Virus record (IMG/VR): IMGVR_UViG_3300045988_139610
Strand: one strand, 5' to 3'
From: a virus
Length of the DNA stretch: 64,000 nt
Both the position numbers and the translations under genes were made by a program. Of the stretch, positions 850 to 63,657 are shown piece by piece. The notes under the pieces were generated by a model. It was not told the DNA's origin and did not search any database. It saw only the letters and a list, made by a program, of their open reading frames with translations. How positions within the stretch are numbered: the first letter of the stretch is position 1; each line of letters opens with the position of its first letter.

Positions 850-874
850 CCGTCATAAAATTTATTAATTATTT

Positions 875-1612
875 TTATTTAGTACCCGACGAACCAATCC
901 CACTCTTTCTAATTATATTACAATTATCTTCATCTGCTAATAAATATTTCTTGAATATCCCTTGCAAAATTCTTTCTCCTGCTTTTAATTCTACTGTTTT
1001 ATCTGTTAAATTTTTAAATTTAAGCCCTATATTCCCATCATTATCTGGATTACCATAATAATCACTATCTATAATTCCACATGTATTTACTAACATTAAT
1101 CCTTTTTTAAATCCAATGATACTTCTAGGTACTATTTCCAAATATTCATTATATAACATATATGCTTTGATATCTGTTTGTATTGCTTCGGATATACCAT
1201 GAGGTGGTATTTTAATATCTATTGGAGTTGATATATCATATCCTGCTGATTCACTAGTGGCACGTGTAGGTATTCTTATATCTACATTTGGATGTTTTCT
1301 AAATTCATCAGACACAATTTCAAATCCCCTTACCTTTTGTGAGACACTTTCCTCTATTTTTAATGTATTTGTTGTATAATCTACACCTAATATTTTAATT
1401 TCTGATTCATTTACTAATTCTAACGCATCTCCATACCAAAAATAATCAACATCGTTTAACACATAACATTTACCAAAGATAGCATTATAACGTATATCTA
1501 TTATTTCAAATTCCTTCCCTCTATATTTTAACATCTCTGGAATTATATCATGAAAATTATATTCATTTAAATCCTCTCTTATTCTTACTTTATCACCTAT
1601 ATTAAAATTCAT
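875..1612 (-). CDS. dut: dUTPase with an extra ~75-aa N-terminal domain
   Basis: Trimeric dUTPase motifs AGYDIS, IVPRS, GIIDSDYYG and C-terminal RKSGIGSSG. The N-terminal part FNIGDKVRI...FWYGDALELV is shared with ORFs 2155..2664 and 179..409. Confidence 0.85.
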   Translation of the reverse strand: MNFNIGDKVRIREDLNEYNFHDIIPEMLKYRGKEFEIIDIRYNAIFGKCYVLNDVDYFWYGDALELVNESEIKILGVDYTTNTLKIEESVSQKVRGFEIVSDEFRKHPNVDIRIPTRATSESAGYDISTPIDIKIPPHGISEAIQTDIKAYMLYNEYLEIVPRSIIGFKKGLMLVNTCGIIDSDYYGNPDNDGNIGLKFKNLTDKTVELKAGERILQGIFKKYLLADEDNCNIIRKSGIGSSGTK

Positions 1613-1629
1613 ATTACATCTCTCCTTTA

Positions 1630-2127
1630 TTAATAATTTATATATTTTAACACATCTAAATCATTCATTAATATACCTATATTTTTGAACTCTTTATACG
1701 GTATACTTTTACGCTTGTTATTTTCTTTAAACTTTTTGATTGCTAGCCCACTCACCAAATACACTTCTTTAAATTCTCTAAATTCTATTATAAAGAATAC
1801 ATTATTTGCATAGTTTTGAATCTCATCAATTAAATCGTATTGATAGTCTTTTATATTTGAAAGAGGAAATGAAGTTTTATTAGCTGTTGTTTTAGCCTCA
1901 AATACTATGCTTTTTCCATTAGGTAATATACCTATGTAATCTAGACAAGGTGATTGTTTCTTAGGAAAAGCCGATATAATTTTAGCTCCTTTTCTTAATA
2001 CAGTAAATTCAGTTGGAATCTTAAATATATAAGCCTTTCCTTCTTTTCTATATTTTTCAAATTGTTTTGTTAATCTATTTTCAAATTTAGCACCTATTTT
2101 ATTACTTTTATTTGGTATAAGAATCAC
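1630..2127 (-). CDS. recU: RecU-type Holliday junction resolvase
   Basis: LDYIGIL..IVFEAKTTANKTSFPLSNIKDYQYDLI closely parallels the recalled B. subtilis RecU core [22 protein letters not shown]. Confidence 0.8.
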   Translation of the reverse strand: MILIPNKSNKIGAKFENRLTKQFEKYRKEGKAYIFKIPTEFTVLRKGAKIISAFPKKQSPCLDYIGILPNGKSIVFEAKTTANKTSFPLSNIKDYQYDLIDEIQNYANNVFFIIEFREFKEVYLVSGLAIKKFKENNKRKSIPYKEFKNIGILMNDLDVLKYINY

Positions 2128-2154
2128 TTCCTTTCTTTTTAGATTATTAAAAAC

Positions 2155-2664
2155 TTATTTATTTTTGTCTTGCAATTTTTTAAGTCTTTCTATCTCTCTA
2201 TTTAAATACCAAAATCCTTTTTGAAGGTCTTCGAGTTCTTTATTTGGGTCTTTTTTTCCTGCTCGGGACACATATTTTATTACGTTTCCTCTAGCAAAAT
2301 TTAATTGTTTATCTTCTATAAAATCCATAACTTCTATGTTGCCATCTGTATAATGTGATGGATGATTAACAACATCATCTTCAATTTCTTTAGATATTTC
2401 AGAATCTTTCAAATCTGATTCATTTACTTTGTTCTCTTCTATTTTCGTATTCATATTATCATTCTCTTTTATTAATTCTAATACATTTTCTGACCAATCC
2501 CAGACTTGTTCATCTATATCTAACTTTATTATACCTTTACCAAAAGTACTTGTTACAATTGCCTCTTTATCTACAAACCCTTCCATATAACAATTACATC
2601 CAAATTCGCATTTACTCAAATCTCCTTTTATTCTAACTTTATCACCAACATTAAATTTGTTCAT
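2155..2664 (-). CDS. DUF3310 (SaV-like) protein with the shared N-terminal GDKVRI domain
   Basis: C-terminal HPSHYTDGNIEVMDFIEDKQLNFARGNVIKYVSRAGKK..EDLQKGFWYL matches the recalled DUF3310 pattern. The N-terminus FNVGDKVRIKGDL...VWDWSENVLELI is the shared domain. Confidence 0.6.
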   Translation of the reverse strand: MNKFNVGDKVRIKGDLSKCEFGCNCYMEGFVDKEAIVTSTFGKGIIKLDIDEQVWDWSENVLELIKENDNMNTKIEENKVNESDLKDSEISKEIEDDVVNHPSHYTDGNIEVMDFIEDKQLNFARGNVIKYVSRAGKKDPNKELEDLQKGFWYLNREIERLKKLQDKNK

Positions 2665-2734
2665 TAAATATCATCTCCTTAAAATTTGTTATTTTTATTA
2701 ATATTTTATTTAGAGTATATTTTATCACCTCCTT

Positions 2735-2778
2735 CCTTATATTACTGTATTAGCGTTAGTTATTTAAAAATTACCTAT
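2735..2778 (-). promoter_or_regulatory. class-B phage promoter/leader
   Basis: Sense AATAGGTAATTTTTAAATAACTAACGCTAATACAGTAATATAAGGAAGGAGGTGAT. Confidence 0.6.
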
Positions 2779-2796
2779 TCACCACAAATTTATTAA

Positions 2797-2970
2797 TTAT
2801 TTTCCGTATTCATCATTAATAAATTTAAAAATTGATATTATATCACATAAACATTCAGCCCCAGAACAGCTACGCATATTACATGTTTCGTCAAAGATAC
2901 AATCTTTACATTTTACAGTCCTTAATGCTTCATACAAACTATCTAAAGCTAAATTGAAATCGTCTCCCAT
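2797..2970 (-). CDS. small Cys-rich protein (57 aa)
   Basis: Hand translation MGDDFNLALDSLYEALRTVKCKDCIFDETCNMRSCSGAECLCDIISIFKFINDEYGK. The stop lies inside the 17-mer. Confidence 0.5.
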   Translation of the reverse strand: MGDDFNLALDSLYEALRTVKCKDCIFDETCNMRSCSGAECLCDIISIFKFINDEYGK

Positions 2971-3660: not shown

Positions 3661-3674
3661 TTTATTAATTATTT

Positions 3675-4172
3675 TTAATTTATATATTCAAATTCATAAT
3701 CGTAATTATTTTTCTTTTGTCCTTTCAGTATTGAAGTTATAGTTTTTCTATTTAATTGTAACTGTTCTGCACATGAACGTATAGATTTAAAAATATATGT
3801 TTCTCCTGTTATTTTATGTGTTACCTTAACCTCGCATCTATATGTACTTTTATAAAGATTATTATCGTATGCATGTTGAGTATTCTTTTTATTTGAAGTC
3901 CATTCTAAATTCTCAACATTGTTGTTTAATTTATTCCCGTCAATATGATTGACCATATTATTATTTTCTGATTTACCTTTAACAAATGCTTCAGCAACCA
4001 AAATATGTACTCTTTTATAGCATCTCTTTTTATTTTTTCTTAATATGACTTGTTTATATCCTACATCATCTATTCATTGACATAATTCTTTATACTTAGA
4101 TTTAACTTTAGATATAACTCTTCCGTCATCTGTAATAAAATAATTTTTAAACCCCTCAATTTCTCTTTCCAT
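3675..4172 (-). pseudogene. HNH (HNH_3/NUMOD4-like) homing endonuclease interrupted by one in-frame TGA
   Basis: ATG at 4170-4172 after GGGGTGA. MEREIEGFKNYFITDDGRVISKVKSKYKELCQ-TGA(4074-4076)-IDDVGYKQVILRKNKKRCYKRVHILVAEAF..NHIDGNKLNNNVENLEW all lie in one frame of 166 codons. Confidence 0.7.
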
Positions 4173-4305
4173 ACTATTCACCCCAAATTTATTAATTATT
4201 TTTAACCCTTAACCTATATAGCATATTATCCAAATAATTTAATCATCATTAATTTTGATAATTGTTTTTCTAATGTTTCTAATATACCATACATATTATC
4301 ACCTC

Positions 4306-7650: not shown

Positions 7651-7675
7651 ATAACCACTCCTTTATTAATTATTT

Positions 7676-8443
7676 TTAATCTGTTATTTCAACTTCATAA
7701 GAATACATACCGTCATATAGCCTTTTAGGTATTAAGTCAAAGTAATAATCTGCTACTTCTTTAATATTCTTTTCTTTATAATATTTATATATTTCAAATC
7801 CTTTCTTTTGAGTTTCATAATAGCCTAAATATTCACATTTCGATTTTCCTGTTTCTGGATTAATCATATTACAACGTATTACATATTTACCATTTACAGG
7901 AGTTGTTCCTATCAGAGAATCACCTCTTGATTTATCACATTTAGTAAATAAACTATTGATTGTATGTGGCACAAAAATACAAGTTTCTGGACTATAAATT
8001 TTATTACCTTTAACTAATATATCTTTGTCCAAATGCATCCTTTCCCCTTCTACTTCATAATAATTTTCATAATACCATTTAGCGAAATTCTGAAAGTTAT
8101 GCCATTCATCACAAACTTCGCATCCAATGTAAGTCGGATTTCTTTTATGGAATTTATCAGAATAACATCTTTTTAGCATATCGTGCCAAACATCATAACA
8201 TTTTGTAGCCTTACTATTTTTACTTACTTTATATTTACCTTCCCCTAAATACCCCACTCCATATATACTTCTCTCATAAGGACATTTTATTTCACCTTTT
8301 TTAAAATTTCTATATGCTTTATTTTTAACCGTCCAATCATATTGAGGAAAATAAACGTCTATATCTATAGCCTTCCTATAATTAATAATTATCATCTCAC
8401 TTCCGAAGTTATTTATATTCTTTTCACCAGTTCTATCATTCAT
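7676..8443 (-). CDS. free-standing homing-endonuclease-like protein with AP2-type C-terminal domain (paralog 1 of 4)
   Basis: Shares NINNFGSEM, CPYER, GVGYLGEGKYKVS, W..ML.RCY, LDKDILVKGNKIYSPETCI and GTTPVNGKY...LGYY.T...F..YK.YKE with 20481.., 24088.. and 54633... Confidence 0.55.
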   Translation of the reverse strand: MNDRTGEKNINNFGSEMIIINYRKAIDIDVYFPQYDWTVKNKAYRNFKKGEIKCPYERSIYGVGYLGEGKYKVSKNSKATKCYDVWHDMLKRCYSDKFHKRNPTYIGCEVCDEWHNFQNFAKWYYENYYEVEGERMHLDKDILVKGNKIYSPETCIFVPHTINSLFTKCDKSRGDSLIGTTPVNGKYVIRCNMINPETGKSKCEYLGYYETQKKGFEIYKYYKEKNIKEVADYYFDLIPKRLYDGMYSYEVEITD

Positions 8444-8896: not shown

Positions 8897-9361
8897 TTAA
8901 TATAAATTAATAACACCATAATCAATAAACATATTTTCTGGTTCTTTATTGATTATTTTCTTTGCCTTATCTAAATCAATCTCTTTGAATTTATTATAAT
9001 TCATATCAAATAATACACAGCTATACTTTAAATGATATGTTAATTCTAAATATTTCTCATATGATATTACTCTAAATTGTAAATGTATGTTTATATCTAA
9101 ATTATCAAAATAAAATTTTAATACAACTAAATAAAAATCTTTACATTTAATTTTATCATACGATAATGATGTTTCAAATGTATTAATAGCAGTCAATAAC
9201 TTATCTAACATAATATCTATATTTCTATCTGATACAACTAGAATTATATTTGTTAAATCAATTAAATTACAATATTCACTTTCTATATTAAATTTCCAGC
9301 AATTTAATAAATCATGTATTGTATCTATTGTTTCTGTTTTATTCCTTTGTATTACATCCAA
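8897..9361 (-). CDS. hypothetical protein
   Basis: ORF directly behind a class-B promoter, TTG start after GGGGTGAT. Confidence 0.5.
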   Translation of the reverse strand: MDVIQRNKTETIDTIHDLLNCWKFNIESEYCNLIDLTNIILVVSDRNIDIMLDKLLTAINTFETSLSYDKIKCKDFYLVVLKFYFDNLDINIHLQFRVISYEKYLELTYHLKYSCVLFDMNYNKFKEIDLDKAKKIINKEPENMFIDYGVINLY

Positions 9362-10851: not shown

Positions 10852-11436
10852 TTACTCTCCTTTATTAATTATTTTTTCTTTTTCAAAGCAATGTTTACAC
10901 ATGGACTTATATCTTTCATTACCGCCTATTTCGATTTGTTCTCCGTCTAGAAGTATTTCTCCGTTTTCGTTTATGCGTGCGTTTATTGTTGCCTTTTTGC
11001 CACATGCACAAACTGTTTTTAACTCTCTAATATCGTCAGCTAATTCAAATAATGCTTTACTTCCTTCAAAGAAGCATTGTCTAAAGTCTGTTTTTAATCC
11101 GAAGCAAACTACTGTATATTTAAGAGAGATTTCGTATAATTCTCTTACTTGTTTTTGTGTTAAAAATTGAGCTTCGTCGACCATTATTATAGTTTGTTGT
11201 TGAAAACTATCTGTAAAATTAAAATCTTTATCAATTAACTCACATTCTGTTTCTAAGCCTATCCTTGAAGAAATTGTATTTCCCCTTTTATTAGTTTTAA
11301 AACTCTTTCTAGTATCTAACGAAGGTTTATATACTATTACTTTATACCCTGCTTTTTCATAATTATATTTCCAAGTGAGAAGTTGTAAACTTTTACCAGA
11401 CCCCATTGTACCATAACAAAATATTAATTTACTCAT
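10852..11436 (-). CDS. tdk: thymidine kinase
   Basis: GTMGSGKS, VDEAQFL, and zinc-site Cys pairs CACGKKA and CKHC. Confidence 0.9.
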   Translation of the reverse strand: MSKLIFCYGTMGSGKSLQLLTWKYNYEKAGYKVIVYKPSLDTRKSFKTNKRGNTISSRIGLETECELIDKDFNFTDSFQQQTIIMVDEAQFLTQKQVRELYEISLKYTVVCFGLKTDFRQCFFEGSKALFELADDIRELKTVCACGKKATINARINENGEILLDGEQIEIGGNERYKSMCKHCFEKEKIINKGE

Positions 11437-11451
11437 TTTGTTCCTCCTTTA

Positions 11452-12492
11452 TTAATTATTTTTTAATAATAAATTTACAAATAATTCTTCCAAAACATTA
11501 ACAACTATACTATTTCCTGCTTGTTTATATAGTTGAGTATCACTAATTTTATTTTCTTTTAATTTAAAATAATCTTTATCGTCAAATCCCATCAATCTAA
11601 AACATTCTAGTGGTGTCAGCCTTCTTATATCATAGTTATTTATTTCATTAATTTTTTCTAATAAATCATTACTTGATAAAAATTTATTAGTATATTCTAT
11701 ATATTCATATGGTAAATCTATATCAATAATATAATTGTCGTCCATTCTACTTCCCGCTTTAGTAGTTAAAGTATATGCTATATTGGCATTCTTTTTAACA
11801 TGAGGTCTAAACTTAAATGTATTTCCTTTTTGTTCCTGTTTAAAACTATTATTTATATAAAAATCTTTTGTTTTTAATAAATTATATTTTTTATCTACAT
11901 TTTCTTCTAACAAGTCTTTTAATGTTATGGTAAGTTCTTTTTCTTCTGGAAATTCATAAGGTTTATGTTTACCTAATACACTTATACAATATATTCGTCT
12001 TCTATTTTGAGGAATTCCATAATCTATAGCGTTTAATACTTTATAATAAGATGTATATCCTATCTCTTCTAATACGTCGATATATTTTTGAAAATTATGT
12101 ATATGTTTTTTATGTAACACATTCCTTACGTTTTCCCAAATAACATATTTTGGTTTACAATGTTTTATTATCTCAACGCTATTCCACATCAAACTACTTT
12201 TTGTTCCACTACCTTCGTCAGCTCCATCTTGTGCCCCTACACTTGAAAAGCTTTGACAAGGTGACCCATGTGTTATAATATCTATATTTTTGGGCAAATC
12301 AAATATGTTTATTTTTGTTATATCTTTTAAATTTAATTCTTCTGATACGTTATGTATTATACTATAAGATTTACTGGCAAATTTATCTATTTCACAATAA
12401 TTAACCAATTCATAATCAACACCTATATTGTTCAATGCTTTTTCAAAAGCACCTATCCCACTAAATAAACTTAACATCCTCAACTTTTCCAT
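11452..12492 (-). CDS. dcm: DNA (cytosine-5) methyltransferase
   Basis: C5-MTase motifs FSGIGAFE (I), GSPCQSFS (IV), ENV (VI), QNRRR (VIII) and GNS (X). Confidence 0.9.
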   Translation of the reverse strand: MEKLRMLSLFSGIGAFEKALNNIGVDYELVNYCEIDKFASKSYSIIHNVSEELNLKDITKINIFDLPKNIDIITHGSPCQSFSSVGAQDGADEGSGTKSSLMWNSVEIIKHCKPKYVIWENVRNVLHKKHIHNFQKYIDVLEEIGYTSYYKVLNAIDYGIPQNRRRIYCISVLGKHKPYEFPEEKELTITLKDLLEENVDKKYNLLKTKDFYINNSFKQEQKGNTFKFRPHVKKNANIAYTLTTKAGSRMDDNYIIDIDLPYEYIEYTNKFLSSNDLLEKINEINNYDIRRLTPLECFRLMGFDDKDYFKLKENKISDTQLYKQAGNSIVVNVLEELFVNLLLKNN

Positions 12493-12563: not shown

Positions 12564-12609
12564 GGATGAAAATTATTTTATTAATTATTTTCATCGCCCT
12601 ATATTAATA

Positions 12610-13850: not shown

Positions 13851-13871
13851 TACTATCTTTAAATTTATTAA

Positions 13872-14607
13872 TTATTTTCTTTTATAATTTTTATAATACT
13901 CCTTCTTTATTTCTTTTTTCTTTTTCAATATTCTGACTCTGCTATACTCTACTTGCTCCTTGTCTATTTCACTTGCAATGTAATAAATATTTTCATTAAT
14001 TGTTGCTAAACATGTACTCCCAGTCCCACAAAACGTGTCAAAGACAATTCCTCTTTTTTTCACATACATATTTAATAATTCTTTTACTAATTCAGTTGAA
14101 AATACATGATGATTAAATGTTTTAACTCCTTTGTCTCTAACTGGTGCATTAATTATATTAGATATATTAGTATATGTTTTTTGTCCGTTCTCTCTGTGGC
14201 TTTTAACCTTTTTGTTAGTCTTGTAAGTTTTGAATTCATTCTTTCTGCAAAATAAATGTATTTGTGATACATTTTTTGTTGATTGATTACAACTCATATT
14301 ATCTGGTAAAATACCAACTTTATTCCAATATATAATGTCACCTAATTGAAATTCTGTATTCATTTCTATTTCATTTATTATTTGGAATATTTCACTTGGT
14401 TTCTTTCTGTTATATGGGATTTCAATTAATATTGTTCCATTATCTACTAATATTTTATCAAACTGTTGAAATAGATTTATGTAGTCCTCCTTAGATAAGT
14501 TAGGGAGGACTTTGAGTCAGTATAACATCTACTTTGAAATTTTCTTCAACCATTTGTTCCATTAGAGAAAAACAATCTGTATTATATATTACATTTTTTT
14601 CAATCAT
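13872..14607 (-). pseudogene. beta-class N4-C/N6-A DNA methyltransferase disrupted at the (S/D)PPY motif
   Basis: ATG at 14605-14607. MIEKNVIYNTDCFSLMEQMVEENFKVDVILTQSPP-TAA(14500-14502). The +1 frame continues NLSKEDYINLFQQFDKILVDNG.. into track ORF 13872..14363, which carries motif I FDTFCGTGST. Total length is 736 nt (3n+1). Confidence 0.7.
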
Positions 14608-15359: not shown

Positions 15360-15392
15360 ATTATCATTCTCCTTTTTTATTAATTATTTTTA

Positions 15393-15644: not shown

Positions 15645-15660
15645 AATAAATCCTCCTTTA

Positions 15661-19600: not shown

Positions 19601-19610
19601 AATTTATTAA

Positions 19611-24074: not shown

Positions 24075-24087
24075 TTATTAATTATTT

Positions 24088-49295: not shown

Positions 49296-49322
49296 GTCTT
49301 ACCACCCCTTTATTAATTATTT

Positions 49323-49508: not shown

Positions 49509-49536
49509 ATTATTATTCTCCTTTTATTAATTATTT

Positions 49537-49707
49537 TTATCTATCGCTTAATTGAGTAACAGATACATTTTCGATAACTCTTTCGTCTTTAGTTTCTAGT
49601 ATATATTTAAAGTTAACCAAGTCGTATGTTACCCCTGTAACTCTACATTTTATTTTCTTAGTTCCTTTCTTTGGTCGGTAATAAATCCAATCATTAATAT
49701 TAAACAT
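49537..49707 (-). CDS. small hypothetical protein (56 aa)
   Basis: MFNINDWIYYRPKKGTKKIKCRVTGVTYDLVNFKYILETKDERVIENVSVTQLSDR. Behind a class-A promoter. Confidence 0.45.
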   Translation of the reverse strand: MFNINDWIYYRPKKGTKKIKCRVTGVTYDLVNFKYILETKDERVIENVSVTQLSDR

Positions 49708-49759: not shown

Positions 49760-49792
49760 TGCTTTATTAATTATTTTTACTTCAATGTCTTA

Positions 49793-50524: not shown

Positions 50525-50540
50525 ATTTATTTCTCCTTTA

Positions 50541-51116
50541 TTAATTATTTTTAATTTCTTTTATTATATCTTTAATTAAATTGATTTTTCTATTAATTGT
50601 CACACTACTTACATTTAATTTTTTAGATATATTTTTTTGCTTGTATCCATCCATTAACATATCCATAATTATATGTAATTCTTCTGCATTAATCTTATTA
50701 AATTTATTAATATTTCTTTTTTTTATTATACTATCAAATTCATTCATTAATTCTATATATTCGATATTTTGATATTCTAAATCTATTTTTCCTATAGTAT
50801 CTAATAGAGTAGTCTGTTCTTTATCATCGTCAGATATATTAACATCCATAGATATAAGCATATCTTTGTCTCTATAATAAGTGTTTCTTAAATAGACATT
50901 GTATGAATTGTATATAATTGCACAAATAAATTTTTTAATATCCCCTTTAGACTCATCAAATTTATTTCTAGATTCCCAAAGTTGTAGTAACGAATATTGA
51001 ATCATATCTTCTTTAATTTTGAAAAATCCATTATAATTTTTATTATATATCTTACCAGCTAATTCTAAAGATAAATTTACATATTCTGTATCACTTATCA
51101 TTGTTTTACTCATCAC
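50541..51116 (-). CDS. small sigma-70-family factor (regions 2 and 4 only), copy 1
   Basis: 191 aa. Region-2-like LLQLWESRNKFDESKGDIKKFICAIIYNSY. Region-4 HTH EELHIIMDMLMDGYKQKNISKKLNVSSVTINRKINLIK. Confidence 0.6.
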   Translation of the reverse strand: MMSKTMISDTEYVNLSLELAGKIYNKNYNGFFKIKEDMIQYSLLQLWESRNKFDESKGDIKKFICAIIYNSYNVYLRNTYYRDKDMLISMDVNISDDDKEQTTLLDTIGKIDLEYQNIEYIELMNEFDSIIKKRNINKFNKINAEELHIIMDMLMDGYKQKNISKKLNVSSVTINRKINLIKDIIKEIKNN

Positions 51117-51193
51117 TTTACCCCCTATAGTTTATTAATTATTTTTATCTATACATAGATTGTATGATATTGTAATGATATTTGCCACCTCCT

Positions 51194-51784
51194 TTATTCA
51201 TTATTTTTTATTTCTGTAATTATATCTTTTATTCTATTGACTTTCTTATTAACATTCGTACTGCTTACTCCTAACATTTTGCTGATTTCGCATTTATTAT
51301 AGCCTTCATATAGTTTATTAATTATAAAATGTAACTCATCCAAATCTATTTTTCTACTTGTATGTTTATTTCTCTCTTCAACTATATTATTAAATTTATT
51401 TATAAACTCTTGTTTTTCAATATTTTTATAGTTGATATCTTCTTTAAGAAAATGACTAATTAATTTATTATATTCCTTTCTACAATCCAGTAATGTATCA
51501 TTCATTGTATATATTCCTTCAGCAGAAATAACTTTACCTTTATTTTTATATACAAAGTCTCTCACATATTTTGTCATGCTCTTCCATGCAATAGCATTAA
51601 GATAAGTATTTAATGAAACATTTTTGCTTTCATCATATCTTTTTATGGCACTACACATTTGCATATAAGCATATGATTGCATATCGTCTTTAAATAGAGA
51701 GAATGTTTTAAATCGTTTATTCCATATTCCCTTTGTTATTTTTATCATCAATCTTCCTTGTTCTTCTGAAATTTTTTCTTTCAT
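51194..51784 (-). CDS. small sigma-70-family factor, copy 2 (tandem paralog)
   Basis: 196 aa with the same layout. HTH DELHFIINKLYEGYNKCEISKMLGVSSTNVNKKVNRIK. Confidence 0.6.
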   Translation of the reverse strand: MKEKISEEQGRLMIKITKGIWNKRFKTFSLFKDDMQSYAYMQMCSAIKRYDESKNVSLNTYLNAIAWKSMTKYVRDFVYKNKGKVISAEGIYTMNDTLLDCRKEYNKLISHFLKEDINYKNIEKQEFINKFNNIVEERNKHTSRKIDLDELHFIINKLYEGYNKCEISKMLGVSSTNVNKKVNRIKDIITEIKNNE

Positions 51785-51858: not shown

Positions 51859-51874
51859 ATTTTATTAATTATTT

Positions 51875-52486
51875 TTAATTATCTTCTTCCCTACACCATT
51901 TTCTAAATACAATATGATATTCATCTTCCCACAAATCTAAAACAAATCCTTTATTTACATCAGTTACATCGACAAGACTTTCGTTACAACAATACATCCA
52001 ATCTTTTATATCTTTTTTATCAACTAAATTTACGTCAAAATAATATTCCTTATTTTTATTAAATATAAGCTCTTTTGAATGATTATTTATAGGTTTATCT
52101 TCTAAATTATCTAATAATGAAAATCCTGCATCTGTCCAATGGTCATTTTTATCTATACCAAAAAATATTTTTCCTTCAAATTCTTTAGGTTTACTGCCTT
52201 TTAGACTTGATTTTGTTTGTATTGTTCCTATAACATCATTTATAATGTCATTCCCATATACATTTTCTGTTTCTGTGGATTTAACATCTACTTCTATTTT
52301 ATTGCAACTATAAGGAAATACAACGTATTCCTCACCTTCTACTTTAACAATGCCTATATATTCAGTTTCTGGCTCTACAATTAATCCATCACATACACTT
52401 GTCCAAGTAAATTTCTCACCATTATAAAGATAATACTTATTTTCACTAAAGACATATAATGCTTTTAAATCAAATTTATCTAACAT
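51875..52486 (-). CDS. hypothetical protein
   Basis: ORF in the array. The C-terminus YHIVFRKWCRE resembles the C-terminus of 54196..54549 (YIVFVNWCKE). Confidence 0.5.
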   Translation of the reverse strand: MLDKFDLKALYVFSENKYYLYNGEKFTWTSVCDGLIVEPETEYIGIVKVEGEEYVVFPYSCNKIEVDVKSTETENVYGNDIINDVIGTIQTKSSLKGSKPKEFEGKIFFGIDKNDHWTDAGFSLLDNLEDKPINNHSKELIFNKNKEYYFDVNLVDKKDIKDWMYCCNESLVDVTDVNKGFVLDLWEDEYHIVFRKWCREEDN

Positions 52487-52804: not shown

Positions 52805-52821
52805 ATTAAAACCTCCTTTTA

Positions 52822-53250
52822 TTAATTATTTTCTTCTACTTCTTTTGTTATACCTAAATAACTTCCTCCAATGCTTTCCACCCATGTTATAAATTCTTCA
52901 ATAAATCTTTCTTCGTCCATTTCAGATATAACAATTCCGTTTATTTCCACGCTGTGAGGTTTTCTTTCTTTGACAAAATCTTTCCAATCAATAATAGGTA
53001 AATGACTATAATTTTTCTTATAAAAATTAACGGTTCCATAAACTAAAGTTTTATGTTCTTCTTTATATTGATATCGTAAACAAGAGTTATATCCATATTC
53101 ATTATACATTGTGTATAATAATGAAAATAGATTTTCTTCTTCTGGTAAACAAACTTTACTTTGTTCATAAAAATCTCTTACATCATTAATTTCTTCAAAA
53201 TGGATTATTAATTCCCCATCTTTAAATTTTTTCCAATTTGCTTTGTTCAT
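52822..53250 (-). CDS. hypothetical protein
   Basis: ORF behind a class-A promoter. Confidence 0.5.
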   Translation of the reverse strand: MNKANWKKFKDGELIIHFEEINDVRDFYEQSKVCLPEEENLFSLLYTMYNEYGYNSCLRYQYKEEHKTLVYGTVNFYKKNYSHLPIIDWKDFVKERKPHSVEINGIVISEMDEERFIEEFITWVESIGGSYLGITKEVEENN

Positions 53251-53303: not shown

Positions 53304-53315
53304 TAAGTTTATTAA

Positions 53316-53900
53316 TTATTTTAGCTTTAAATTATGTAATTTTTTAATTTTTTCTTTTTTCTCACCATTGCTTTCAGTATAATACTTTTCATTATATCGT
53401 TTAATACTTGCCTCATCTTTTATAGGTTTTTCTTTTTGTATATAATTACTTAAAGCATCCAATATCGTATTGTAAGCTTTATCAAATCCGTATAATTTAC
53501 GATTTTCATTTTCTGTAATTCTACGCTTAGTTAATTGATTTTTCATATTATTTAAAAATTCTAATTGTTTTGTTTCTTCTAATTCTCCTAAGTCTAATTC
53601 TTCAAGTTGATGATATAATTTATTTTTAACATTACCATAATTATGTTCTTCTCTTGTTACTTCTACTTGGTATTTACCAAGCTCTATTAAGTCATCTATA
53701 AGATTATTATATAACTTTTCAAAAGACTTTTTACCTGTATGTTTTACGAATTGCACTTTATCATCTTTATAAACTGTTATTTCAGCAGGTATATTTGAAT
53801 ATTCTTGTTTAATTTCATTATATTTTTCCATACACTCTTTATAACTATCTGCTTTCAAAGAGAAACTGCCATATTTTAATCCAATTTTTATTTTATACAT
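53316..53900 (-). CDS. hypothetical protein
   Basis: ORF in the array. Confidence 0.5.
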   Translation of the reverse strand: MYKIKIGLKYGSFSLKADSYKECMEKYNEIKQEYSNIPAEITVYKDDKVQFVKHTGKKSFEKLYNNLIDDLIELGKYQVEVTREEHNYGNVKNKLYHQLEELDLGELEETKQLEFLNNMKNQLTKRRITENENRKLYGFDKAYNTILDALSNYIQKEKPIKDEASIKRYNEKYYTESNGEKKEKIKKLHNLKLK

Positions 53901-53937
53901 CTTCTTTCCCCCTTATACATTATTTTATTAATTATTT

Positions 53938-54156
53938 TTATACTTCTAAATCAAATCCCCTTAAATGATTATAATAACTTTCTCTTTTATCTGCTCTGTC
54001 TAACACATCCACTCTACATTGAAGAAAATCTATAACCTTTTCTAAAAAATCATCATCAAAATCTTGATTAATTTCTTTACAATATATAGCGTCTTCTTCT
54101 ACGCTATTTGCTACTATTTCGTACGCTTCTTTAACATTCATAGTACCTAATCTCAT
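53938..54156 (-). CDS. hypothetical protein
   Basis: ORF in the array. Confidence 0.45.
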   Translation of the reverse strand: MRLGTMNVKEAYEIVANSVEEDAIYCKEINQDFDDDFLEKVIDFLQCRVDVLDRADKRESYYNHLRGFDLEV

Positions 54157-54606: not shown

Positions 54607-54632
54607 TACTTTTTATTAATTATTTATAAAGT

Positions 54633-55742: not shown

Positions 55743-55809
55743 TCATCCCCCTTGTTTTTATTTTATATATATATTATATGATGTTTATTATAATTTATCA
55801 ACTGTTTTA

Positions 55810-55899
55810 TTAATTATTTTTATAATTAATTATGAATAATAAAAAGCCCATTGCCCCACCAACTAAACTTATAAACATAAATGCTAATACATATTTCAT
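55810..55899 (-). CDS. 29-aa hydrophobic micro-peptide
   Basis: AAAAGGGGTGATAAAT precedes the ATG. MKYVLAFMFISLVGGAMGFLLFIINYKNN ends in the 17-mer. Has its own class-A promoter. Confidence 0.4.
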   Translation of the reverse strand: MKYVLAFMFISLVGGAMGFLLFIINYKNN

Positions 55900-55988: not shown

Positions 55989-56014
55989 TTATATTATTAT
56001 TAATTATTTTTAGA

Positions 56015-56755: not shown

Positions 56756-56849
56756 ATTATCATTCTCCTTTTTATTTATTATTTTTATTGATATTTCATT
56801 AACTTTATTAATTATTTTTTATCAACACTCAATTTACATCAACTCCTTT

Positions 56850-56920: not shown

Positions 56921-57793
56921 CTAGTTTCTTGAAGAGTTCATACCATAATATAAACGATGATACTTTAAGCTTAGTTCGTTAGCGTTCATATTGTATCCAT
57001 TTATATCAAGATAACTCTTTGTATTTTGTATAGTCCATACAATATTATCTAATACTTGTAATACAAACATGTCATACATGATGCCTGATTGGTATATTCC
57101 TGTAGCTGTTAATGTAACATTTAATCCTCCATGTTGTAATTCTTTTGTTAAAACAGTCAATTTTCCACTCAAATTGCTACGTTTCATTGGTTCTAAACCA
57201 TTGTTAGTATATCTATTACATAATGTCTTGAATAAATACTCACTGCTCATGTTCAAGTCATAATACATAACATTTCGACTTCTTGTTGTATTAACATATA
57301 CTTCTTGTTCTATCGTGTCTTTAACTAACTCTTTCATTATATCGTCGCATAGTATTTTATTTCCATTTACATTAATATAACTGTAGTCTTCAGCTACGTC
57401 AGAAACCTTAATCTCTAATAGGTCTTTAAATCCTTTACCTAATACTTTATTAAATATCATGTATATTAATAATTTATCTTGTGCATTTATAAGTGAATTA
57501 ATTACATCTAATATTTGAGTTTTTGTGAAGTATTTAGATTCGTCAAAATATAAACATTTTTGCATTAATTCATCTTCTTTTAAATCGTATTTAATTCCCT
57601 TTGTATCTAATACTTCTTTTAAAATTCTAAATCCATCGTAGAAACTACTTCTATTAATTGTCTTTAGATTTTTTATAGCGAAATCTTTTATCACTTCTTC
57701 ATTTATATTTTTTTCACCTATTTCATTAATTAAATCGTTCACCTTATTTTCCATTCTATTCATTTTAATTTGTTTATCACACATCTTAGTCAT
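56921..57793 (-). CDS. hypothetical protein
   Basis: ORF behind an operator-flanked promoter. The stretch LLIYMIFNKVLGKGFKDLLEIKVSDV faintly recalls a tyrosine-recombinase core, but no catalytic residues were identified. Confidence 0.5.
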   Translation of the reverse strand: MTKMCDKQIKMNRMENKVNDLINEIGEKNINEEVIKDFAIKNLKTINRSSFYDGFRILKEVLDTKGIKYDLKEDELMQKCLYFDESKYFTKTQILDVINSLINAQDKLLIYMIFNKVLGKGFKDLLEIKVSDVAEDYSYINVNGNKILCDDIMKELVKDTIEQEVYVNTTRSRNVMYYDLNMSSEYLFKTLCNRYTNNGLEPMKRSNLSGKLTVLTKELQHGGLNVTLTATGIYQSGIMYDMFVLQVLDNIVWTIQNTKSYLDINGYNMNANELSLKYHRLYYGMNSSRN

Positions 57794-57854: not shown

Positions 57855-57935
57855 CTTTATTAATTTTCTTTATATATTATACACAGATTGGAGTTTAAAT
57901 ATACCAACTTTTATTAATTATTTTTTAAAATAAGC

Positions 57936-57974: not shown

Positions 57975-58775
57975 TTATTTAATTCTGTTTTCAATTCCCT
58001 TCTCTCTTATTTGTAATTCTTCTTTATTAATTATTTTCAATATATTAAGGATGTCTTTGTTTTTATTTACTTGTTCTGCAAATTCACTAAAGAATATTAT
58101 ATTATTGTTTACTCCAATTCTGGCTACACCTAAATCAGCACATTTGTTAACAAAATTATCATTAGGTCTAAATCTTCTATTTTTGTTTATTATTGTATAA
58201 TCTCCTAAATTCAAATATTCATCTAGGTATCTAAATAATGTACTTGGCAACAAATTATCTATATTTATCTTTTTAACTATCTGAGTGACTCCATAAGCCT
58301 TTCTACGTCTTTCATAATGTAATCTATCCTTTAATTTATTAAGTTTATTTTGAAGTGAATCTAATTGTTCTTTAGATATATTGTTATCTATATAAAATCC
58401 ATTTCTTCTTATTTCATCTAAAAGATATATCATTTCTATTTTATATTCTGCACCAAGTCTACTGTTCATGATTATATAATTTATCATTGTAAAGTTTCCG
58501 AATATTTCACCTGCATTATTAACTTTGTCAAAGTTTCGGATTACATTTAATTTTACCTCTGAATTTGTTACCAATTTCGTGTTTTGTTCTAAGAAATTCG
58601 GAGTACATTTAGAATGTACGCTAAAATCCTCAAGTTTCTTTCTTGTGTTTGATAAAGTTTGTCTACTTAATGGTAAATCATTCATTGCATACCATGTTTC
58701 ATCACCTATTTTTATTGCTCTCAAATTATATTTTTCTATTAATTCATCAAATAAATTTTGTACTTTATTGCTCAT
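57975..58775 (-). CDS. hypothetical protein
   Basis: ORF in the array. No secure motif. Confidence 0.5.
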   Translation of the reverse strand: MSNKVQNLFDELIEKYNLRAIKIGDETWYAMNDLPLSRQTLSNTRKKLEDFSVHSKCTPNFLEQNTKLVTNSEVKLNVIRNFDKVNNAGEIFGNFTMINYIIMNSRLGAEYKIEMIYLLDEIRRNGFYIDNNISKEQLDSLQNKLNKLKDRLHYERRRKAYGVTQIVKKINIDNLLPSTLFRYLDEYLNLGDYTIINKNRRFRPNDNFVNKCADLGVARIGVNNNIIFFSEFAEQVNKNKDILNILKIINKEELQIREKGIENRIK

Positions 58776-58793
58776 AATATCACCCCTTCTTTA

Positions 58794-59051
58794 TTAATTA
58801 TTTTTATCTATATAATTGAATACTAGAAAATCATTATCCTTTTTATTATACAGTAATTGTAGATGATGCCAGGTAAGTTGAGTGTTATAATATAAATCTT
58901 GAAAAGCCAATACTATCAATTCTTCATTATTTGGAATGTTCAGTATTTCAGAAAACTCTTCTAGAGTATAATTAACAATCAGAGTATCTTCCAATCTTTT
59001 TCTACTGTGTTCTATAAAGTCATTGACTTGTTTTTGTTTTAATATATACAT
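58794..59051 (-). CDS. hypothetical protein
   Basis: ORF behind a class-A promoter. Confidence 0.5.
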   Translation of the reverse strand: MYILKQKQVNDFIEHSRKRLEDTLIVNYTLEEFSEILNIPNNEELIVLAFQDLYYNTQLTWHHLQLLYNKKDNDFLVFNYIDKNN

Positions 59052-59070
59052 AATATCTCCTCCTTTATTA

Positions 59071-59099
59071 ATTATATTATAATTTACAAATTAAGTCAA
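59071..59099 (-). promoter_or_regulatory. class-A sigma-A-type promoter
   Basis: Sense TTGACT-N17-TATAAT. Confidence 0.65.
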
Positions 59100-59120
59100 T
59101 AAATTTATTAATTATTTTTA

Positions 59121-60708: not shown

Positions 60709-61614
60709 TTAATCCCAAACATTATTTACCATTTTCTTTTTAGTATCTGTATTAGGATGGTAATAAAAAGAGTAGGTTGTTTGTGGATTACTATGTCCAG
60801 CTAGCTTTGCTGTTTCTGTAACATTAAATCCATTCTCCATATATGCCGTTAAACTTGTATGGCGTGCCGTATGAGGCGTAAAATTTGTAATTCCTACACT
60901 TTTAGTTATGTTTGATATTATTTTTTCAAGTCCACTTGAAGACAAACGTTGTTTATAACTTGATATAAATAGTGAATTATCTTTTGCATTTATTTTTAAT
61001 CTTTCATCAAGATATTTATTATATAAATCTAAAGCTTTATCGCTTAATACACATTGCTTTTTACTGCCACCTTTTTGAGTAATAGTATATTCTCCTGTTT
61101 CTCTATCTATTGTATCAACGTTTAAACTTCTTATTTCAAAATTTCTAAGTGCATTTTGGAATAAAATTTCTACAATTAAAATATTTCTTAAATTGTTAAA
61201 ATTCTTTTTCAAATTATATTCTGATTTTACATAATTTCTAATCTTTGTTATGTTTTTTGTATCTTCTGCGTGACCTTTAGATTCAATTCTTAATTGTTTA
61301 AGTTCCTTACTAGCATTAAAATCAATAATCCTAAATGCACATAGATAACCATAAAATGATTTACAACTAGCTATCCTTCTGTTAAGACTTTGATTAGATA
61401 ATCCTTCATTTCTTTTTTTGTTTAACCAATTTTGTAATTGGATTATAGTAGAATTTTGTATATCATCTATTCTTTTAAATCCACAATACTCAATCATTTC
61501 CTTTACTACTGGAATATATGATTTAATACTTTTAGGTGATAAGTTTTTTATATCCTTCAAGTATGCTATATAATTATTTATTAATCTTTCCATATTATTA
61601 ACTTTTTCCATCAT
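60709..61614 (-). CDS. tyrosine recombinase (XerC/D-like integrase)
   Basis: SAM-like N-domain YIAYLKDIKNLSPKSIKSY. Catalytic ALRNFEIRSL (R), HTARHT (HxxR), LAGHS and ..TYSFYYH (Y). Confidence 0.85.
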   Translation of the reverse strand: MMEKVNNMERLINNYIAYLKDIKNLSPKSIKSYIPVVKEMIEYCGFKRIDDIQNSTIIQLQNWLNKKRNEGLSNQSLNRRIASCKSFYGYLCAFRIIDFNASKELKQLRIESKGHAEDTKNITKIRNYVKSEYNLKKNFNNLRNILIVEILFQNALRNFEIRSLNVDTIDRETGEYTITQKGGSKKQCVLSDKALDLYNKYLDERLKINAKDNSLFISSYKQRLSSSGLEKIISNITKSVGITNFTPHTARHTSLTAYMENGFNVTETAKLAGHSNPQTTYSFYYHPNTDTKKKMVNNVWD

Positions 61615-61676: not shown

Positions 61677-61710
61677 TAGATTTATTAATAATTTTTACAA
61701 TCTTTTTGAA

Positions 61711-62262: not shown

Positions 62263-62294
62263 AATTACCAACCTCCTTATGTTTTATATCATTA

Positions 62295-62324
62295 ATTATA
62301 TCATATTTCACTATCATTTGTCAA
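62295..62324 (-). promoter_or_regulatory. class-A sigma-A-type promoter
   Basis: Sense TTGACA-N18-TATAAT with a TG extension. Confidence 0.65.
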
Positions 62325-62332
62325 CAGTTTTA

Positions 62333-62944
62333 TTAATTATTTTCACCATCATTTACCATTATATTGTTTAATTTAATATATCCTTTTTCTTTATTATCAT
62401 ATATTCTTAATTTACCATAATCATCTTGATGTCTTCCATATAATAACAATTGAATTATTTTCTCTTTTGATAATCTATCTCTAGTGCCAACTAATTTTCC
62501 ACATTCATTACAATATATATGATAACGGTGATAATCTTTTTCTAATTCTAGATTAGGTGTAAAAAATTCATCATCATTCACTTTGTATTTACAGCAAAGT
62601 TCTTTCCATTCTTTATAATGACTTGTATTTCTACCATGTTTCTTGTCAGACAATAAATGGATTAATTCATGTTGGATAATATGTTTAACCGTATCATTAT
62701 CATATGAGTTAATACGTTTACTAAATTTAAATTTCACTGGTGATATAAACTCACCACTTCTCTTATATTTGCCACTAAAATAGCCCATGCTTGATTTAAG
62801 TCTACCGTCTATTGATATTGGAATAATATCAATTACATCACCAATTGTTTCTCTATCATCTTTATCCATTTTTAATACAAAATCCTTCATGTAATTTCTT
62901 ATTTCGTCTGATGTCCAGGTCTTATTAACACTTTTCCCCATCAT
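62333..62944 (-). CDS. SprT-like zinc metalloprotease
   Basis: HExxH in IIQHELIHLL. C-terminal CNECGKLV zinc-ribbon-like motif. Confidence 0.6.
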   Translation of the reverse strand: MMGKSVNKTWTSDEIRNYMKDFVLKMDKDDRETIGDVIDIIPISIDGRLKSSMGYFSGKYKRSGEFISPVKFKFSKRINSYDNDTVKHIIQHELIHLLSDKKHGRNTSHYKEWKELCCKYKVNDDEFFTPNLELEKDYHRYHIYCNECGKLVGTRDRLSKEKIIQLLLYGRHQDDYGKLRIYDNKEKGYIKLNNIMVNDGENN

Positions 62945-63081
62945 TCAATCCCCCAATATTATTTATTAATTATTTTTACTATCATTGCCAAGAGCTTTTA
63001 AAAAATTTATTAATTATTTTTATTAATTATTTTGATAATCTTTTTAGCAGGTTTTAAAGGATTACCTGCAAACCTTTTATA

Positions 63082-63519
63082 TTATGGTAGTAATGTATAC
63101 ATACCACTTTTTAGCATCTTTATTAAACCAGTTAATGTTGTTGTGCTAGTGTATGGAAATACATGTACTGGATAATGTGCATAACCACCACTGTAGCTCA
63201 TACCTGTATAAGTAATAATACCAGTTGATGTTGTTGATACTATCAACAAAGATGTAGGAATTTTAGCACTATGCACACATACGTATTTGTGGTGAGTACC
63301 ACGCAATGCTATTTTATAACCTACAAGGTAAGGCAACATTGTTGCTGGAGTACTAGACGCTTTTAGAGTGCAAATTACTTTGCTTATGTGTGGTTTTACA
63401 GTTGCTGGAGTAATGTATGTTATTACTGGTGATGTTGATACTGGTTTACTTGATAAACTTTTTGCTAATGCTAAAGTAGTCATTGTTACTGTGCTTGGTA
63501 ATGTTATATATTTGCTCAT
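63082..63519 (-). CDS. Thr/Ser/Pro-rich hypothetical protein (compositional outlier)
   Basis: 145-aa ORF with A/T-ending codons (ACA, CCA, GTA, TCA), GAAAGGGG upstream, and its own class-A promoter. Confidence 0.5.
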   Translation of the reverse strand: MSKYITLPSTVTMTTLALAKSLSSKPVSTSPVITYITPATVKPHISKVICTLKASSTPATMLPYLVGYKIALRGTHHKYVCVHSAKIPTSLLIVSTTSTGIITYTGMSYSGGYAHYPVHVFPYTSTTTLTGLIKMLKSGMYTLLP

Positions 63520-63557
63520 ATTATAAAACCCCTTTCAATTATCTTAATCTTAATATT

Positions 63558-63586
63558 ATCATATATGATTTTAACTAAGATGTCAA
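63558..63586 (-). promoter_or_regulatory. class-A sigma-A-type promoter
   Basis: Sense TTGACA-N17-TATGAT. Confidence 0.65.
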
Positions 63587-63657
63587 GAGCTTTTTAAAAA
63601 ATTTATTAATTATTTTTACTATCATTTCAAGAGCTGGAAGGTTATTTAAAACCCTCC

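Follow-up and report, generated by a model that had tools for sequence, protein, structure and literature searches.

The 64,000-nucleotide (nt) stretch of virus record IMGVR_UViG_3300045988_139610 analyzed here (the window) belongs to a human gut metagenome contig of 133,615 bp (ERZ916593) and represents the early arm of an SPbeta-like temperate phage. It carries 59 co-oriented copies of a short A/T-rich element, most of them at gene junctions. By analogy with the repeated operators of SPbeta-like phages, this element, the 17-mer 5'-TAAAAATAATTAATAAA-3' in the sense strand, is probably an SPBRE-type operator of an MrpR/SroF-type repressor of the phage, amplified into a stoperator-like array. 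A sequence-only reading of the window had listed a regulator-binding site among several possible roles of the repeat. This role is now the best supported one, since the phage encodes an MrpR/SroF-type repressor and the motif resembles SPBRE and Phi3TRE in anatomy and placement; binding itself is predicted from this likeness.

When the 15-mer TTTATTAATTATTTT was counted with at most one mismatch, 60 matches were found on the two strands of the window, whereas dinucleotide-preserving shuffles of the same sequence averaged 1.66 matches and never exceeded 7; 45 of the copies were exact. The claim of the sequence-only reading that more than 45 copies lie far above chance was thus borne out, and the positions it had given were correct within 1 nt. 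Its list was incomplete, the omissions including the copies at 12577, 58023, 8945, 24883, 27141, 33763, 35071, 51193, 54612, 55996, 56771, 59064, and 61681, and its statement that all copies have one orientation applied to the 59 matches on the plus strand, with a single inverted match of one mismatch (3575-3589) on the minus strand. All long open reading frames (ORFs) of the window lie on the minus strand, and the base skews are uniform. Since all genes are located on the minus strand, the plus-strand matches are antisense and the sense form of the motif is AAAATAATTAATAAA. A position-frequency table and logo of the 59 copies showed a sharp-edged 15-mer whose 15 core positions are nearly invariant. 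The two bases before it are most often T (40 of 59 copies) and A (41 of 59 copies), which extends the element to the 17-mer. On neither flank was there conservation beyond the 17-mer in this table, and dyad symmetry within it was limited to the central TAATTA. TAA is present in two frames of the motif. No paper on phages came up when the literature was searched for the motif string. The motif is real and striking. Its copies are listed below (SD, Shine-Dalgarno sequence; PolIII alpha, alpha subunit of DNA polymerase III; RNR, ribonucleotide reductase; offsets of -35 hexamers in nt downstream of the copy).

63602..63616 (-), exact; intergenic; -35 TTGACA about 15 nt downstream
63019..63033 (-), exact; first in a tandem cluster
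63006..63020 (-), exact; overlaps the 63019 copy by 2 nt
62962..62976 (-), exact; directly before an SD, ATG at 17 nt
62329..62343 (-), exact; supplies the stop (..NN*); -35 TTGACA at +4
61681..61695 (-), one mismatch; after the terminator 61747-61720; -35 at +4, part of the recombinase promoter
59104..59118 (-), exact; -35 TTGACT at +4
59064..59078 (-), one mismatch; adjoins an SD
58790..58804 (-), exact; supplies the stop (..NN*); directly before an SD
58023..58037 (-), exact; within a coding sequence, 48 nt ahead of the stop
57910..57924 (-), exact; after the terminator 57963-57945; 116 nt upstream of the repressor gene
56804..56818 (-), exact; intergenic
56771..56785 (-), one mismatch; directly before an SD
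55996..56010 (-), one mismatch; begins 4 nt past a stop, followed by the intrinsic terminator 55988-55969
55806..55820 (-), exact; -35 at +4
54612..54626 (-), one mismatch; -35 TTGACA at +5
53924..53938 (-), exact; stop overlaps, SD follows
53308..53322 (-), exact; stop inside; -35 TTGACA at +4
52818..52832 (-), exact; ..NN* stop; adjoins an SD
51861..51875 (-), exact; stop overlaps; promoter-like site downstream
51193..51207 (-), one mismatch; stop of the first sigma-like gene
51131..51145 (-), exact; directly before an SD, ahead of the second sigma-like gene
50537..50551 (-), exact; ..NN* stop; adjoins an SD
49763..49777 (-), exact; -35 TTGACA at +3
49523..49537 (-), exact; stop overlaps; adjoins an SD
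49309..49323 (-), exact; stop overlaps; adjoins an SD
47536..47550 (-), exact; directly before an SD, ahead of an Ant-like gene
44266..44280 (-), exact; -35 TTGACA at +5
43708..43722 (-), one mismatch; ..NN* stop
42389..42403 (-), exact; read as KIINK, stop 15 nt on; -35 at +4
39894..39908 (-), exact; stop inside; -35 TTGACA at +5
39705..39719 (-), one mismatch; adjoins an SD
38845..38859 (-), exact; directly before an SD, ahead of a ClpP-like gene
37651..37665 (-), exact; stop overlaps; hairpin, then SD
35496..35510 (-), exact; starts immediately behind the beta-CASP stop codon
35071..35085 (-), one mismatch; deep in a coding sequence, fits chance
34488..34502 (-), exact; ..NN* stop; -35 TTGACG at +5
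34218..34232 (-), exact; directly before an SD
33763..33777 (-), one mismatch; adjoins an SD
32599..32613 (-), exact; hairpin, then SD
30393..30407 (-), exact; adjoins an SD
27141..27155 (-), one mismatch; stop inside, then SD
24926..24940 (-), exact; ..NN* stop; -35 at +5
24883..24897 (-), one mismatch; adjoins the SD of the paralogue 24088-24879
24074..24088 (-), exact; stop overlaps, then a terminator-like hairpin
20467..20481 (-), one mismatch; stop overlaps; adjoins an SD
19603..19617 (-), exact; stop inside, then a ATAGGTAAT box, upstream of the PolIII alpha gene
15657..15671 (-), exact; ..NN* stop; adjoins an SD
15376..15390 (-), exact; directly before an SD
13864..13878 (-), exact; stop inside; -35 TTGACA at +13
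12577..12591 (-), exact; then a ATAGGTAAT box
11448..11462 (-), exact; ..NN* stop of the methylase gene; adjoins the tdk SD
10861..10875 (-), exact; read as KIINK, 9 nt ahead of the tdk stop; adjoins the next SD
8945..8959 (-), one mismatch; within a coding sequence, 48 nt ahead of the stop
7662..7676 (-), exact; stop overlaps; adjoins the SD of the RNR gene
4188..4202 (-), exact; intergenic, downstream of the RNR gene
3661..3675 (-), exact; stop overlaps, then a ATAGGTAAT box
2789..2803 (-), exact; stop inside, then a ATAGGTAAT box
861..875 (-), exact; overlaps the dUTPase stop codon, then a ATAGGTAAT box

For the placement of these copies, genes were called by a crude SD-based procedure, which gave 89 genes and 88 junctions, with 88% of the window coding. 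Gene junctions held 54 of the 59 copies. Gene interiors, which make up 86% of the window, contained three, compared to 2.9 expected from synonymous-codon shuffles. Motif frequency inside genes, which bears on the earlier claim of a boundary-linked position, is thus at chance level with no sign of avoidance in this comparison, and all surplus copies fall within the roughly 9 kb that the junctions comprise. A copy was present at 46 of the 88 junctions when one mismatch was allowed and at 51 with two, and the motif-less junctions are mostly tight, with gaps of at most 20 nt. The statement that the motif marks almost every gene boundary was therefore too strong, all the more as the late-gene arm has roughly ten times fewer copies. 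The stop codon of the upstream gene is supplied by 26 copies, and one more copy follows directly after a stop. Nine genes end within the motif as ..NN*, and Tdk reads through it as KIINK, both as first described from the letters. The three kinds of sequence said to follow the motif were likewise all seen. A sigma-A-type promoter lies downstream of 14 copies, with the -35 hexamer at 3-5 nt in 12 of them; about 24 copies stand directly before an SD, which starts at an offset of -1 or 0 nt in 13 of the 24; and five copies are followed by the ATAGGTAAT box. A few copies precede hairpins or terminators. The copies at 61681 and 57910 are each situated between an intrinsic terminator and the next promoter, which argues for a function in DNA and not in RNA.

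Three exact copies lie within the 72 nt from 62962 to 63033, upstream of the gene at 62333-62944, two of them overlapping by 2 nt; this cluster may be a site of high occupancy.

The genes of a recombinase and of the candidate binder follow each other in the order of yopP before yopR in SPbeta:

60709..61614 (-), gene of a XerC-type tyrosine recombinase (Pfam Phage_integrase, 3.5e-29)
56921..57793 (-), gene of a 290-amino-acid (aa) MrpR/SroF-like repressor of integrase fold, the proposed binder of the 17-mer (Pfam, profile, and fold)

Precomputed Pfam annotation places PF22823 (MrpR_C_cat) on the 290-aa protein and on 43 of 44 database homologues, and a profile of 30 homologues matched SroF of phage phi3T (PDB 9rd5) with an E-value of 1.5e-6. 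A single-sequence AlphaFold2 model was unusable (pLDDT 38), and the alignment-based model (pLDDT 90) was used for a Foldseek search of the PDB. The top seven matches were SroF and MrpR/YopR (E-values of 5e-9 to 8e-7), with Cre, XerA, and IntI next in the list at about 3e-4. According to the profile match and the model, the 290-aa protein is an MrpR/SroF homologue with an integrase fold composed of a core-binding (CB) and a catalytic (CAT) domain; in the structural alignment its identity to MrpR/SroF is only about 15%. The first catalytic arginine of XerA (PDB 4a8e; R135 in GLRVSEL) aligns to G/E in GK(G/E)(F/Y)KDL, the alignment of the repressor homologues shows no invariant H-x-x-R, and the C-terminal Tyr282 is invariant among them. 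The repressor may thus be catalytically dead. The closest cultured relatives of the protein are found in Clostridioides difficile plasmid-type phages of 130-134 kb, e.g., LIBA6276 and phiCD211 (PMC5786514).

SPbeta is controlled by the master repressor MrpR, for which the names YopR and SroF are also in use (PMC10516654). Chromatin affinity precipitation with sequencing revealed about ten MrpR sites, each with an SPBRE, from which a 15-bp motif was derived, and electrophoretic mobility shift assays and lacZ fusions confirmed binding, which thus occurs in vivo and in vitro, and repression, the repressed promoters being PaimR and PyosX (PMC10516654). In the crystal structure of SroF with DNA, the CB and CAT domains of a monomer encircle a 26-bp asymmetric A-tract box, CAGTAATTTTATTTTTATTCTTAATG (bioRxiv 10.1101/2025.11.27.690993). 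The phage of the window matches SPbeta in gene content and order: a XerC-type integrase, a YonV_C protein, the MrpR-like protein, Ant proteins, two sigma-like proteins, a ParB-like protein, a ligase, and a DnaB-like protein are followed by PolIII alpha, a methylase, Tdk, RNR with a LAGLIDADG intein, RecU, and dUTPase, and then by a lysis and tail module on the opposite strand. The genome layout is thus homologous, as is the repressor by fold and profile. The SPBRE core extracted from the SPbeta record, CAAATAATATGTATA, equals the window 15-mer at 10 of 15 positions, and the 9 nt with which the window 17-mer begins, TAAAAATAA, recur in the reverse complement of the Phi3TRE box; either match could be due to chance in A/T-only words.

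The anatomy is shared more broadly: SPBRE, Phi3TRE, and the window motif are asymmetric A/T-rich elements with a core of 15-17 bp that are repeated between genes and share the orientation of the gene that follows; a -35 hexamer begins about 5 nt after the element, or an SD adjoins it. In our own scan of SPbeta, about 13 SPBRE copies were found, every one co-oriented with its downstream gene, including that of yonP on the other strand; they end about 5 nt upstream of the -35 hexamer (aimR, yonX), lie inside the promoter, or adjoin the SD (yopM, yopV). These placements are those of the window motif. The two systems differ in density, with about 10-13 copies per 134 kb in SPbeta and about 75 copies at about half of the junctions of the 72-kb early arm here. 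They differ further in that the window copies are mostly intercistronic, 26 being fused to stops, that the sequence of the element is another one, and that the host is a low-GC gut bacterium; binding is predicted here. SPBRE-type sites belong to early promoters, and in the window 14 copies precede sigma-A-type promoters while about 40 further junction copies do not. A comparable pair is present in C. difficile phage-plasmids, whose MrpR-like protein is about 30% identical and which have an oriented element of their own, TAAACTAAATAAAATA. In phage LIBA6276 the MrpR-like gene directly follows xerC, and the element has about ten matches at up to two mismatches in 40 kb, one of them 5 nt upstream of TTGACA and others upstream of the xerC and mrpR-like genes. 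Repeats of this kind were counted as exact 13- and 14-mers; with a 12-mer finder allowing one mismatch, A-rich words of low complexity dominated the output.

Among phages, the 17-mer characterizes the family of the window phage. In a set of 2.9 million viral contigs, the 21-mer formed by the motif and GGAG occurred almost only in this group, on contigs of 126-140 kb. About 15 related viral contigs fall into this size range. A nucleotide search retrieved no close relative among GenBank phages, and tblastn with the RNR protein gave distant, uninformative matches only. The repressor is conserved where other genes vary: ten motif-bearing relatives carry nearly the same protein, also with a PolIII alpha of 40-44% identity, and in three of the ten PolIII alpha is only 43-44% identical, with the motif unchanged. 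Ordered by identity of the repressor to that of the window, the lineages have the following motifs:

Repressor identity 92-97% (the ten relatives), motif identical
Repressor identity 60%, motif identical
Repressor identity 48%, 5' half different: (W)ATAATAATTAATAA
Repressor identity 37%, 5' half different: ATAAATATAAAATTAATAAA

The 3' half, AATTAATAA, is common to all four lineages. Motif and repressor thus co-vary in part. A changed 5' half next to a retained 3' half fits recognition by two domains, but general divergence could also account for it.

Within the genome, the motif follows the early genes. The early arm continues upstream of the window with 15 more copies in 9.5 kb, giving about 74 in about 72 kb. 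In the late arm beyond the window, where lysis, tail, and other late genes lie on the opposite strand, only 3 copies were found in about 29 kb, compared to 27 expected at early-arm density (Poisson p ~1e-8), or about 0.1 per kb versus a window density of 0.92 per kb; the three late-arm copies are inverted along with the genes.

Modelled on MrpR-SPBRE and SroF-Phi3TRE, one repressor monomer would clamp each asymmetric A/T-rich 17-mer. At the 12 copies located 3-5 nt upstream of a sigma-A -35 hexamer, the clamp would cover the -35/UP region, if its footprint is estimated from the 24 bp read by SroF, and initiation would be blocked. Intercistronic copies, usually fused to the upstream stop and adjoining an SD, would form an orientation-dependent roadblock to RNA polymerase reading through from upstream. 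As an outcome, the lysogen, probably carrying the phage as a plasmid prophage, would keep its 72-kb early arm silent. Both the binding of the repressor to the 17-mer and the block to elongation are proposed by analogy.

The ParB-like operon (45389-47520) carries no motif at its internal junctions, including a gap of 285 nt (46561-46845). As an anecdotal point this is compatible with the model, since these genes should stay on in a plasmid prophage.

Alternatively, the motif might be a signal for the host machinery, namely an UP element bound by the C-terminal domain of the polymerase alpha subunit where it precedes a -35 hexamer and an A/U-rich translational enhancer where it precedes an SD. 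The 12 copies upstream of strong TTGACA-N16-18-TATAAT promoters do cover approximately -40 to -56 with A-tract-rich DNA, and 13 of the 24 copies directly before an SD run into GGAG. UP elements are degenerate and confined to promoters of the sigma-70/sigma-A type, whereas the window motif is an exact, family-specific word that mostly lacks a promoter: the position from -38 to -59 is occupied by these 12 copies only and not by the set as a whole. Such a role does not require 45 copies that are letter-perfect over 15 nt, which exceeds the needs of A/T-richness, and it fits poorly with the confinement of the 21-mer to one phage family, with the variation of the 5' half between sub-lineages, and with the virion and lysis genes, which mostly lack the motif. 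Copies preceding promoters lie upstream of the transcription start and are not part of the mRNA of the downstream gene, and those at 61681 and 57910 stand between terminator and promoter. The UP-element and S1-enhancer roles suggested earlier thus fail in general, about half of the copies having no downstream promoter, and we consider this explanation unlikely, although the operator may double as UP element once the repressor is removed.

A related explanation takes the motif as a promoter, or promoter core, for a phage sigma-like protein or a phage RNA polymerase, with transcription starting near the 3' end of the motif. The motif is indeed oriented with transcription and located right before genes, and the phage encodes two sigma-like proteins:

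51194-51784 (-), phage sigma-like protein gene
50541-51116 (-), phage sigma-like protein gene

Its architecture resembles that of T7-type promoters, which consist of 17 bp followed by purines, and that of the upstream octamer of giant viruses. In addition, the copies at 32599 and 37651 are followed by a hairpin and then an SD, in front of genes that are apparently highly expressed. A contiguous 17-mer is, however, unlike the bipartite promoters of sigma factors, and a better candidate for the latter is the bipartite box ATAGGTAAT-N15-GYTAATA, which lies downstream of the motif in five cases. This box has 13 exact copies compared to 0 expected, all in the sense strand and upstream of genes, including that of PolIII alpha:

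819-849 (-), ATAGGTAAT-N15-GYTAATA
2748-2778 (-), same box
3629-3659 (-), same box
8468-8498 (-), same box
9387-9417 (-), same box
12533-12563 (-), same box
16396-16426 (-), same box
19569-19599 (-), same box
23935-23965 (-), same box
30477-30507 (-), same box
33839-33869 (-), same box
45297-45327 (-), same box
56862-56892 (-), same box

One of the two sigma-like proteins probably recognizes this box as its promoter class. The fixed spacing of 3-5 nt between the 17-mer and a host-type -35 hexamer suits an operator or UP element, terminators immediately follow two copies, and the equivalent element of SPbeta is a proven repressor site (PMC10516654). A promoter function of the 17-mer is therefore very unlikely.

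At both hairpins just mentioned, the order is motif, GC-rich hairpin without a U-tract (32599-32560 and 37651-37610), and SD, in front of the gene of a 376-aa protein and of a 43-aa ORF (37468-37599) located after the ClpP-like gene. The hairpins may be 5' stabilizers or processing sites.

The frequent overlap with stop codons raises the question of an RNA signal at gene ends, either a site for an endonuclease (the phage beta-CASP protein or the host RNase Y or J) or a stop cassette acting in two frames. Besides the 26 stops supplied and the TAA in two frames, the beta-CASP/RMMBL protein encoded by the phage and the two copies preceding terminators agree with such a signal. We regard it as highly improbable: copies located after terminators and before promoters would be poorly transcribed, the ends of late genes are mostly motif-free, a stop cassette does not call for exact conservation over 15-17 nt, the motif shows neither an Rfam family nor an RNA structure, and by analogy with SPbeta the function would lie in DNA. 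The window gave no hits in Rfam and tRNA scans. The motif also differs from the start-associated and extended start-associated sequences of Cluster K mycobacteriophages, a conserved 13-bp word that is located upstream of some start codons, contains the ribosome-binding site, and is thought to act in translation. Both are oriented words before a subset of genes, but the 17-mer excludes the SD, is also found before promoters and terminators, and often lies in the end of the upstream gene.

The operator function preferred here finds its closest counterpart in the stoperators of Cluster A mycobacteriophages, an analogy already drawn by the sequence-only reading that holds up with respect to the many asymmetric sites and their orientation tied to transcription. 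Stoperators of the L5 gp71 type are asymmetric sites for a monomeric repressor at promoters and in short intergenic spaces (PMC9283540; PMC6550527); their orientation strictly follows transcription, and an orientation-dependent block to elongation has been demonstrated (PMC9283540). Like them, the window motif comprises more than 20 asymmetric intergenic sites oriented with transcription, and the proposed mechanism would be the same, with initiation blocked at promoters and, as suggested by this analogy, elongation blocked elsewhere. The proteins are different, L5 gp71 consisting of a helix-turn-helix and a C-terminal domain, in contrast to the integrase-type CB and CAT clamp proposed here. 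The stoperator is a 13-mer of unrelated sequence that is not A/T-only and has more than 20 sites per genome of about 50 kb. The resemblance is thus convergent, and the window motif is an analogue of the stoperators and not a member of this group.

Several observations weigh against the assignment of the 17-mer to the MrpR/SroF-type repressor. The link between the two is one of homology and analogy only. Our own hmmscan of the 290-aa protein did not recover PF22823 at E-values of up to 0.01, and phmmer similarity to MrpR itself was weak (E-value of 0.04), so that it is the profile, the fold, and the precomputed hits that support the homology. The copy number is about 6-fold above that of SPbeta, most copies lie away from promoters, and MrpR/SroF are not known to act as roadblocks between cistrons. 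The conserved core comprises 17 bp compared to the 24 bp read by SroF, and at the copies 55996 and 24074 terminators follow immediately, which makes a roadblock seem redundant there. Furthermore, repressors of only 60% identity go with exactly the same motif, showing that the coupling of repressor and motif is not tight, and in the distant lineages the variant motifs might equally stem from general divergence or from another host. Finally, three genomes with related PolIII alpha (L003, L010, and L011) lack the motif; their repressor genes were not recovered.

The position at gene boundaries is also compatible with a primary role as recombination linker, i.e., as crossover point for cassette exchange between co-infecting relatives. 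Boundary or linker sequences have been proposed to mediate modular exchange in lambdoid and T4-like phages, and they share with the window motif the nature of short conserved words at the edges of mosaic blocks. The phage family is extremely mosaic, with blocks of 75-97% nucleotide identity alternating with unalignable DNA; PolIII alpha, for instance, is 40-99% identical among genomes whose neighbouring genes are 93% identical. In comparisons with the relatives, 37% of 1075 internal ends of BLAST high-scoring segment pairs (HSPs) were located at most 5 nt from a copy, compared to 2.4% of random positions, and at junctions of at least 60 nt, 185 of 343 HSP ends fell on the motif (±5 nt) where 60 were expected. 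Free-standing paralogous genes are bracketed by copies as well. HSP ends are not independent events, however, and BLAST extends through any shared 15-mer, which pulls the ends onto the motif. The coincidence of breakpoints with the motif that had been suggested earlier was therefore seen in the clustering of HSP ends, but the excess over motif-less junctions was weak: the break rate was 0.59 of covering loci at motif junctions and 0.44 at motif-less ones (Mann-Whitney p = 0.06). As the latter break almost as often, a role in recombination is at most secondary. The motif lacks the dyad symmetry needed for a tyrosine-recombinase core site, and a linker leaves the fixed spacing to the -35 hexamer and the low density in the late arm unexplained. 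With this small breakpoint excess, which sets the motif apart from the linkers of lambdoid and T4-like phages, a regulatory function explains the anatomy better, and a primary linker function is decidedly unlikely. It is plausible that cassette exchange at the motif is a side effect of the operator array, since about 75 identical, co-oriented 17-mers would likely offer short homology favouring exchange between related phages. More speculatively, and on balance doubtful, the array might double as one-operator-per-gene silencing, with the integrase-fold clamp blocking initiation and elongation over the entire early arm, and as a portable cassette boundary. Each gene unit would then be framed by the same co-oriented 17-mer, and short-homology recombination between co-resident phage-plasmids could swap genes, so that incoming genes would fall under the resident repressor and immunity specificity would be tied to mosaicism.

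Three further candidates were rejected: a tyrosine-recombinase core or attC-type site, as there is no dyad beyond TAATTA and the flanks are not conserved; a replication or packaging signal, as the motif is specific to junctions and flips with the genes; and a CRISPR-like or tandem array, as the copies are single dispersed units.

Studies of MrpR/SroF-type repressors with their repeated operators have been confined to the SPbeta-like phages of Bacillus, in which about ten sites control early promoters. If the operator assignment is true, abundant uncultured phage-plasmids of about 135 kb in the human gut use the same repressor class differently, with about one perfectly conserved operator per kb and mostly between cistrons, and would have converged on the stoperator strategy with an unrelated protein fold. 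The protein and the 17-mer could then form an orthogonal, orientation-dependent transcriptional roadblock, the motif would serve as a sequence marker for the phage family and its immunity groups in metagenomes, and the family would lend itself to the question of whether cassette exchange is promoted by dense operator arrays.

Some copies and contigs of the family deserve a separate mention. About 1.9 kb past the low-coordinate end of the window, contig L057 has an exact copy (13522-13536) that lies antisense between the amidase and holin genes and is followed at 18 nt by TTGACA-N17-TATAAT; this site may represent an antisense transcription unit in the lysis module. An orthologous inverted copy is found just downstream of a late gene in L083 (7522-7536), L090 (6776-6790), and L092 (7441-7455), a rare exception to co-orientation. 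In L011 (contig JAEDGC010000002.1 of a metagenome-assembled genome), which has no 17-mer, a promoter of the form TTGACATTTGATAA-N9-TGTATAATATAAGTAAAT is repeated about seven times in 24 kb, e.g., at 2732, 18619, and 23084, and may hold a different operator in or after the -10 region.

With respect to single genes of the window, the RNR large subunit (4306-7650) resembles bnrdE of SPbeta in having a LAGLIDADG intein. Three paralogous genes for proteins of about 260 aa (7676-8443, 20481-21284, and 24088-24879) all end in ...(E/K)VEITD*, with the stop on the TA preceding a motif copy, and BLAST hits from many loci pile up on them. A relative's version showed a faint match to the AP2 domain, and the three look like free-standing genes of the homing-endonuclease type bracketed by motif copies. 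The ISL3-family transposase gene at 30684-31997 is about 70% identical at the nucleotide level to a gene of C. difficile phage-plasmids of 130-136 kb, including phiCDIF1296T. Since it is kept in these phage-plasmids, it seems to be a conserved gene of the lineage and not a recent insertion of a mobile element.

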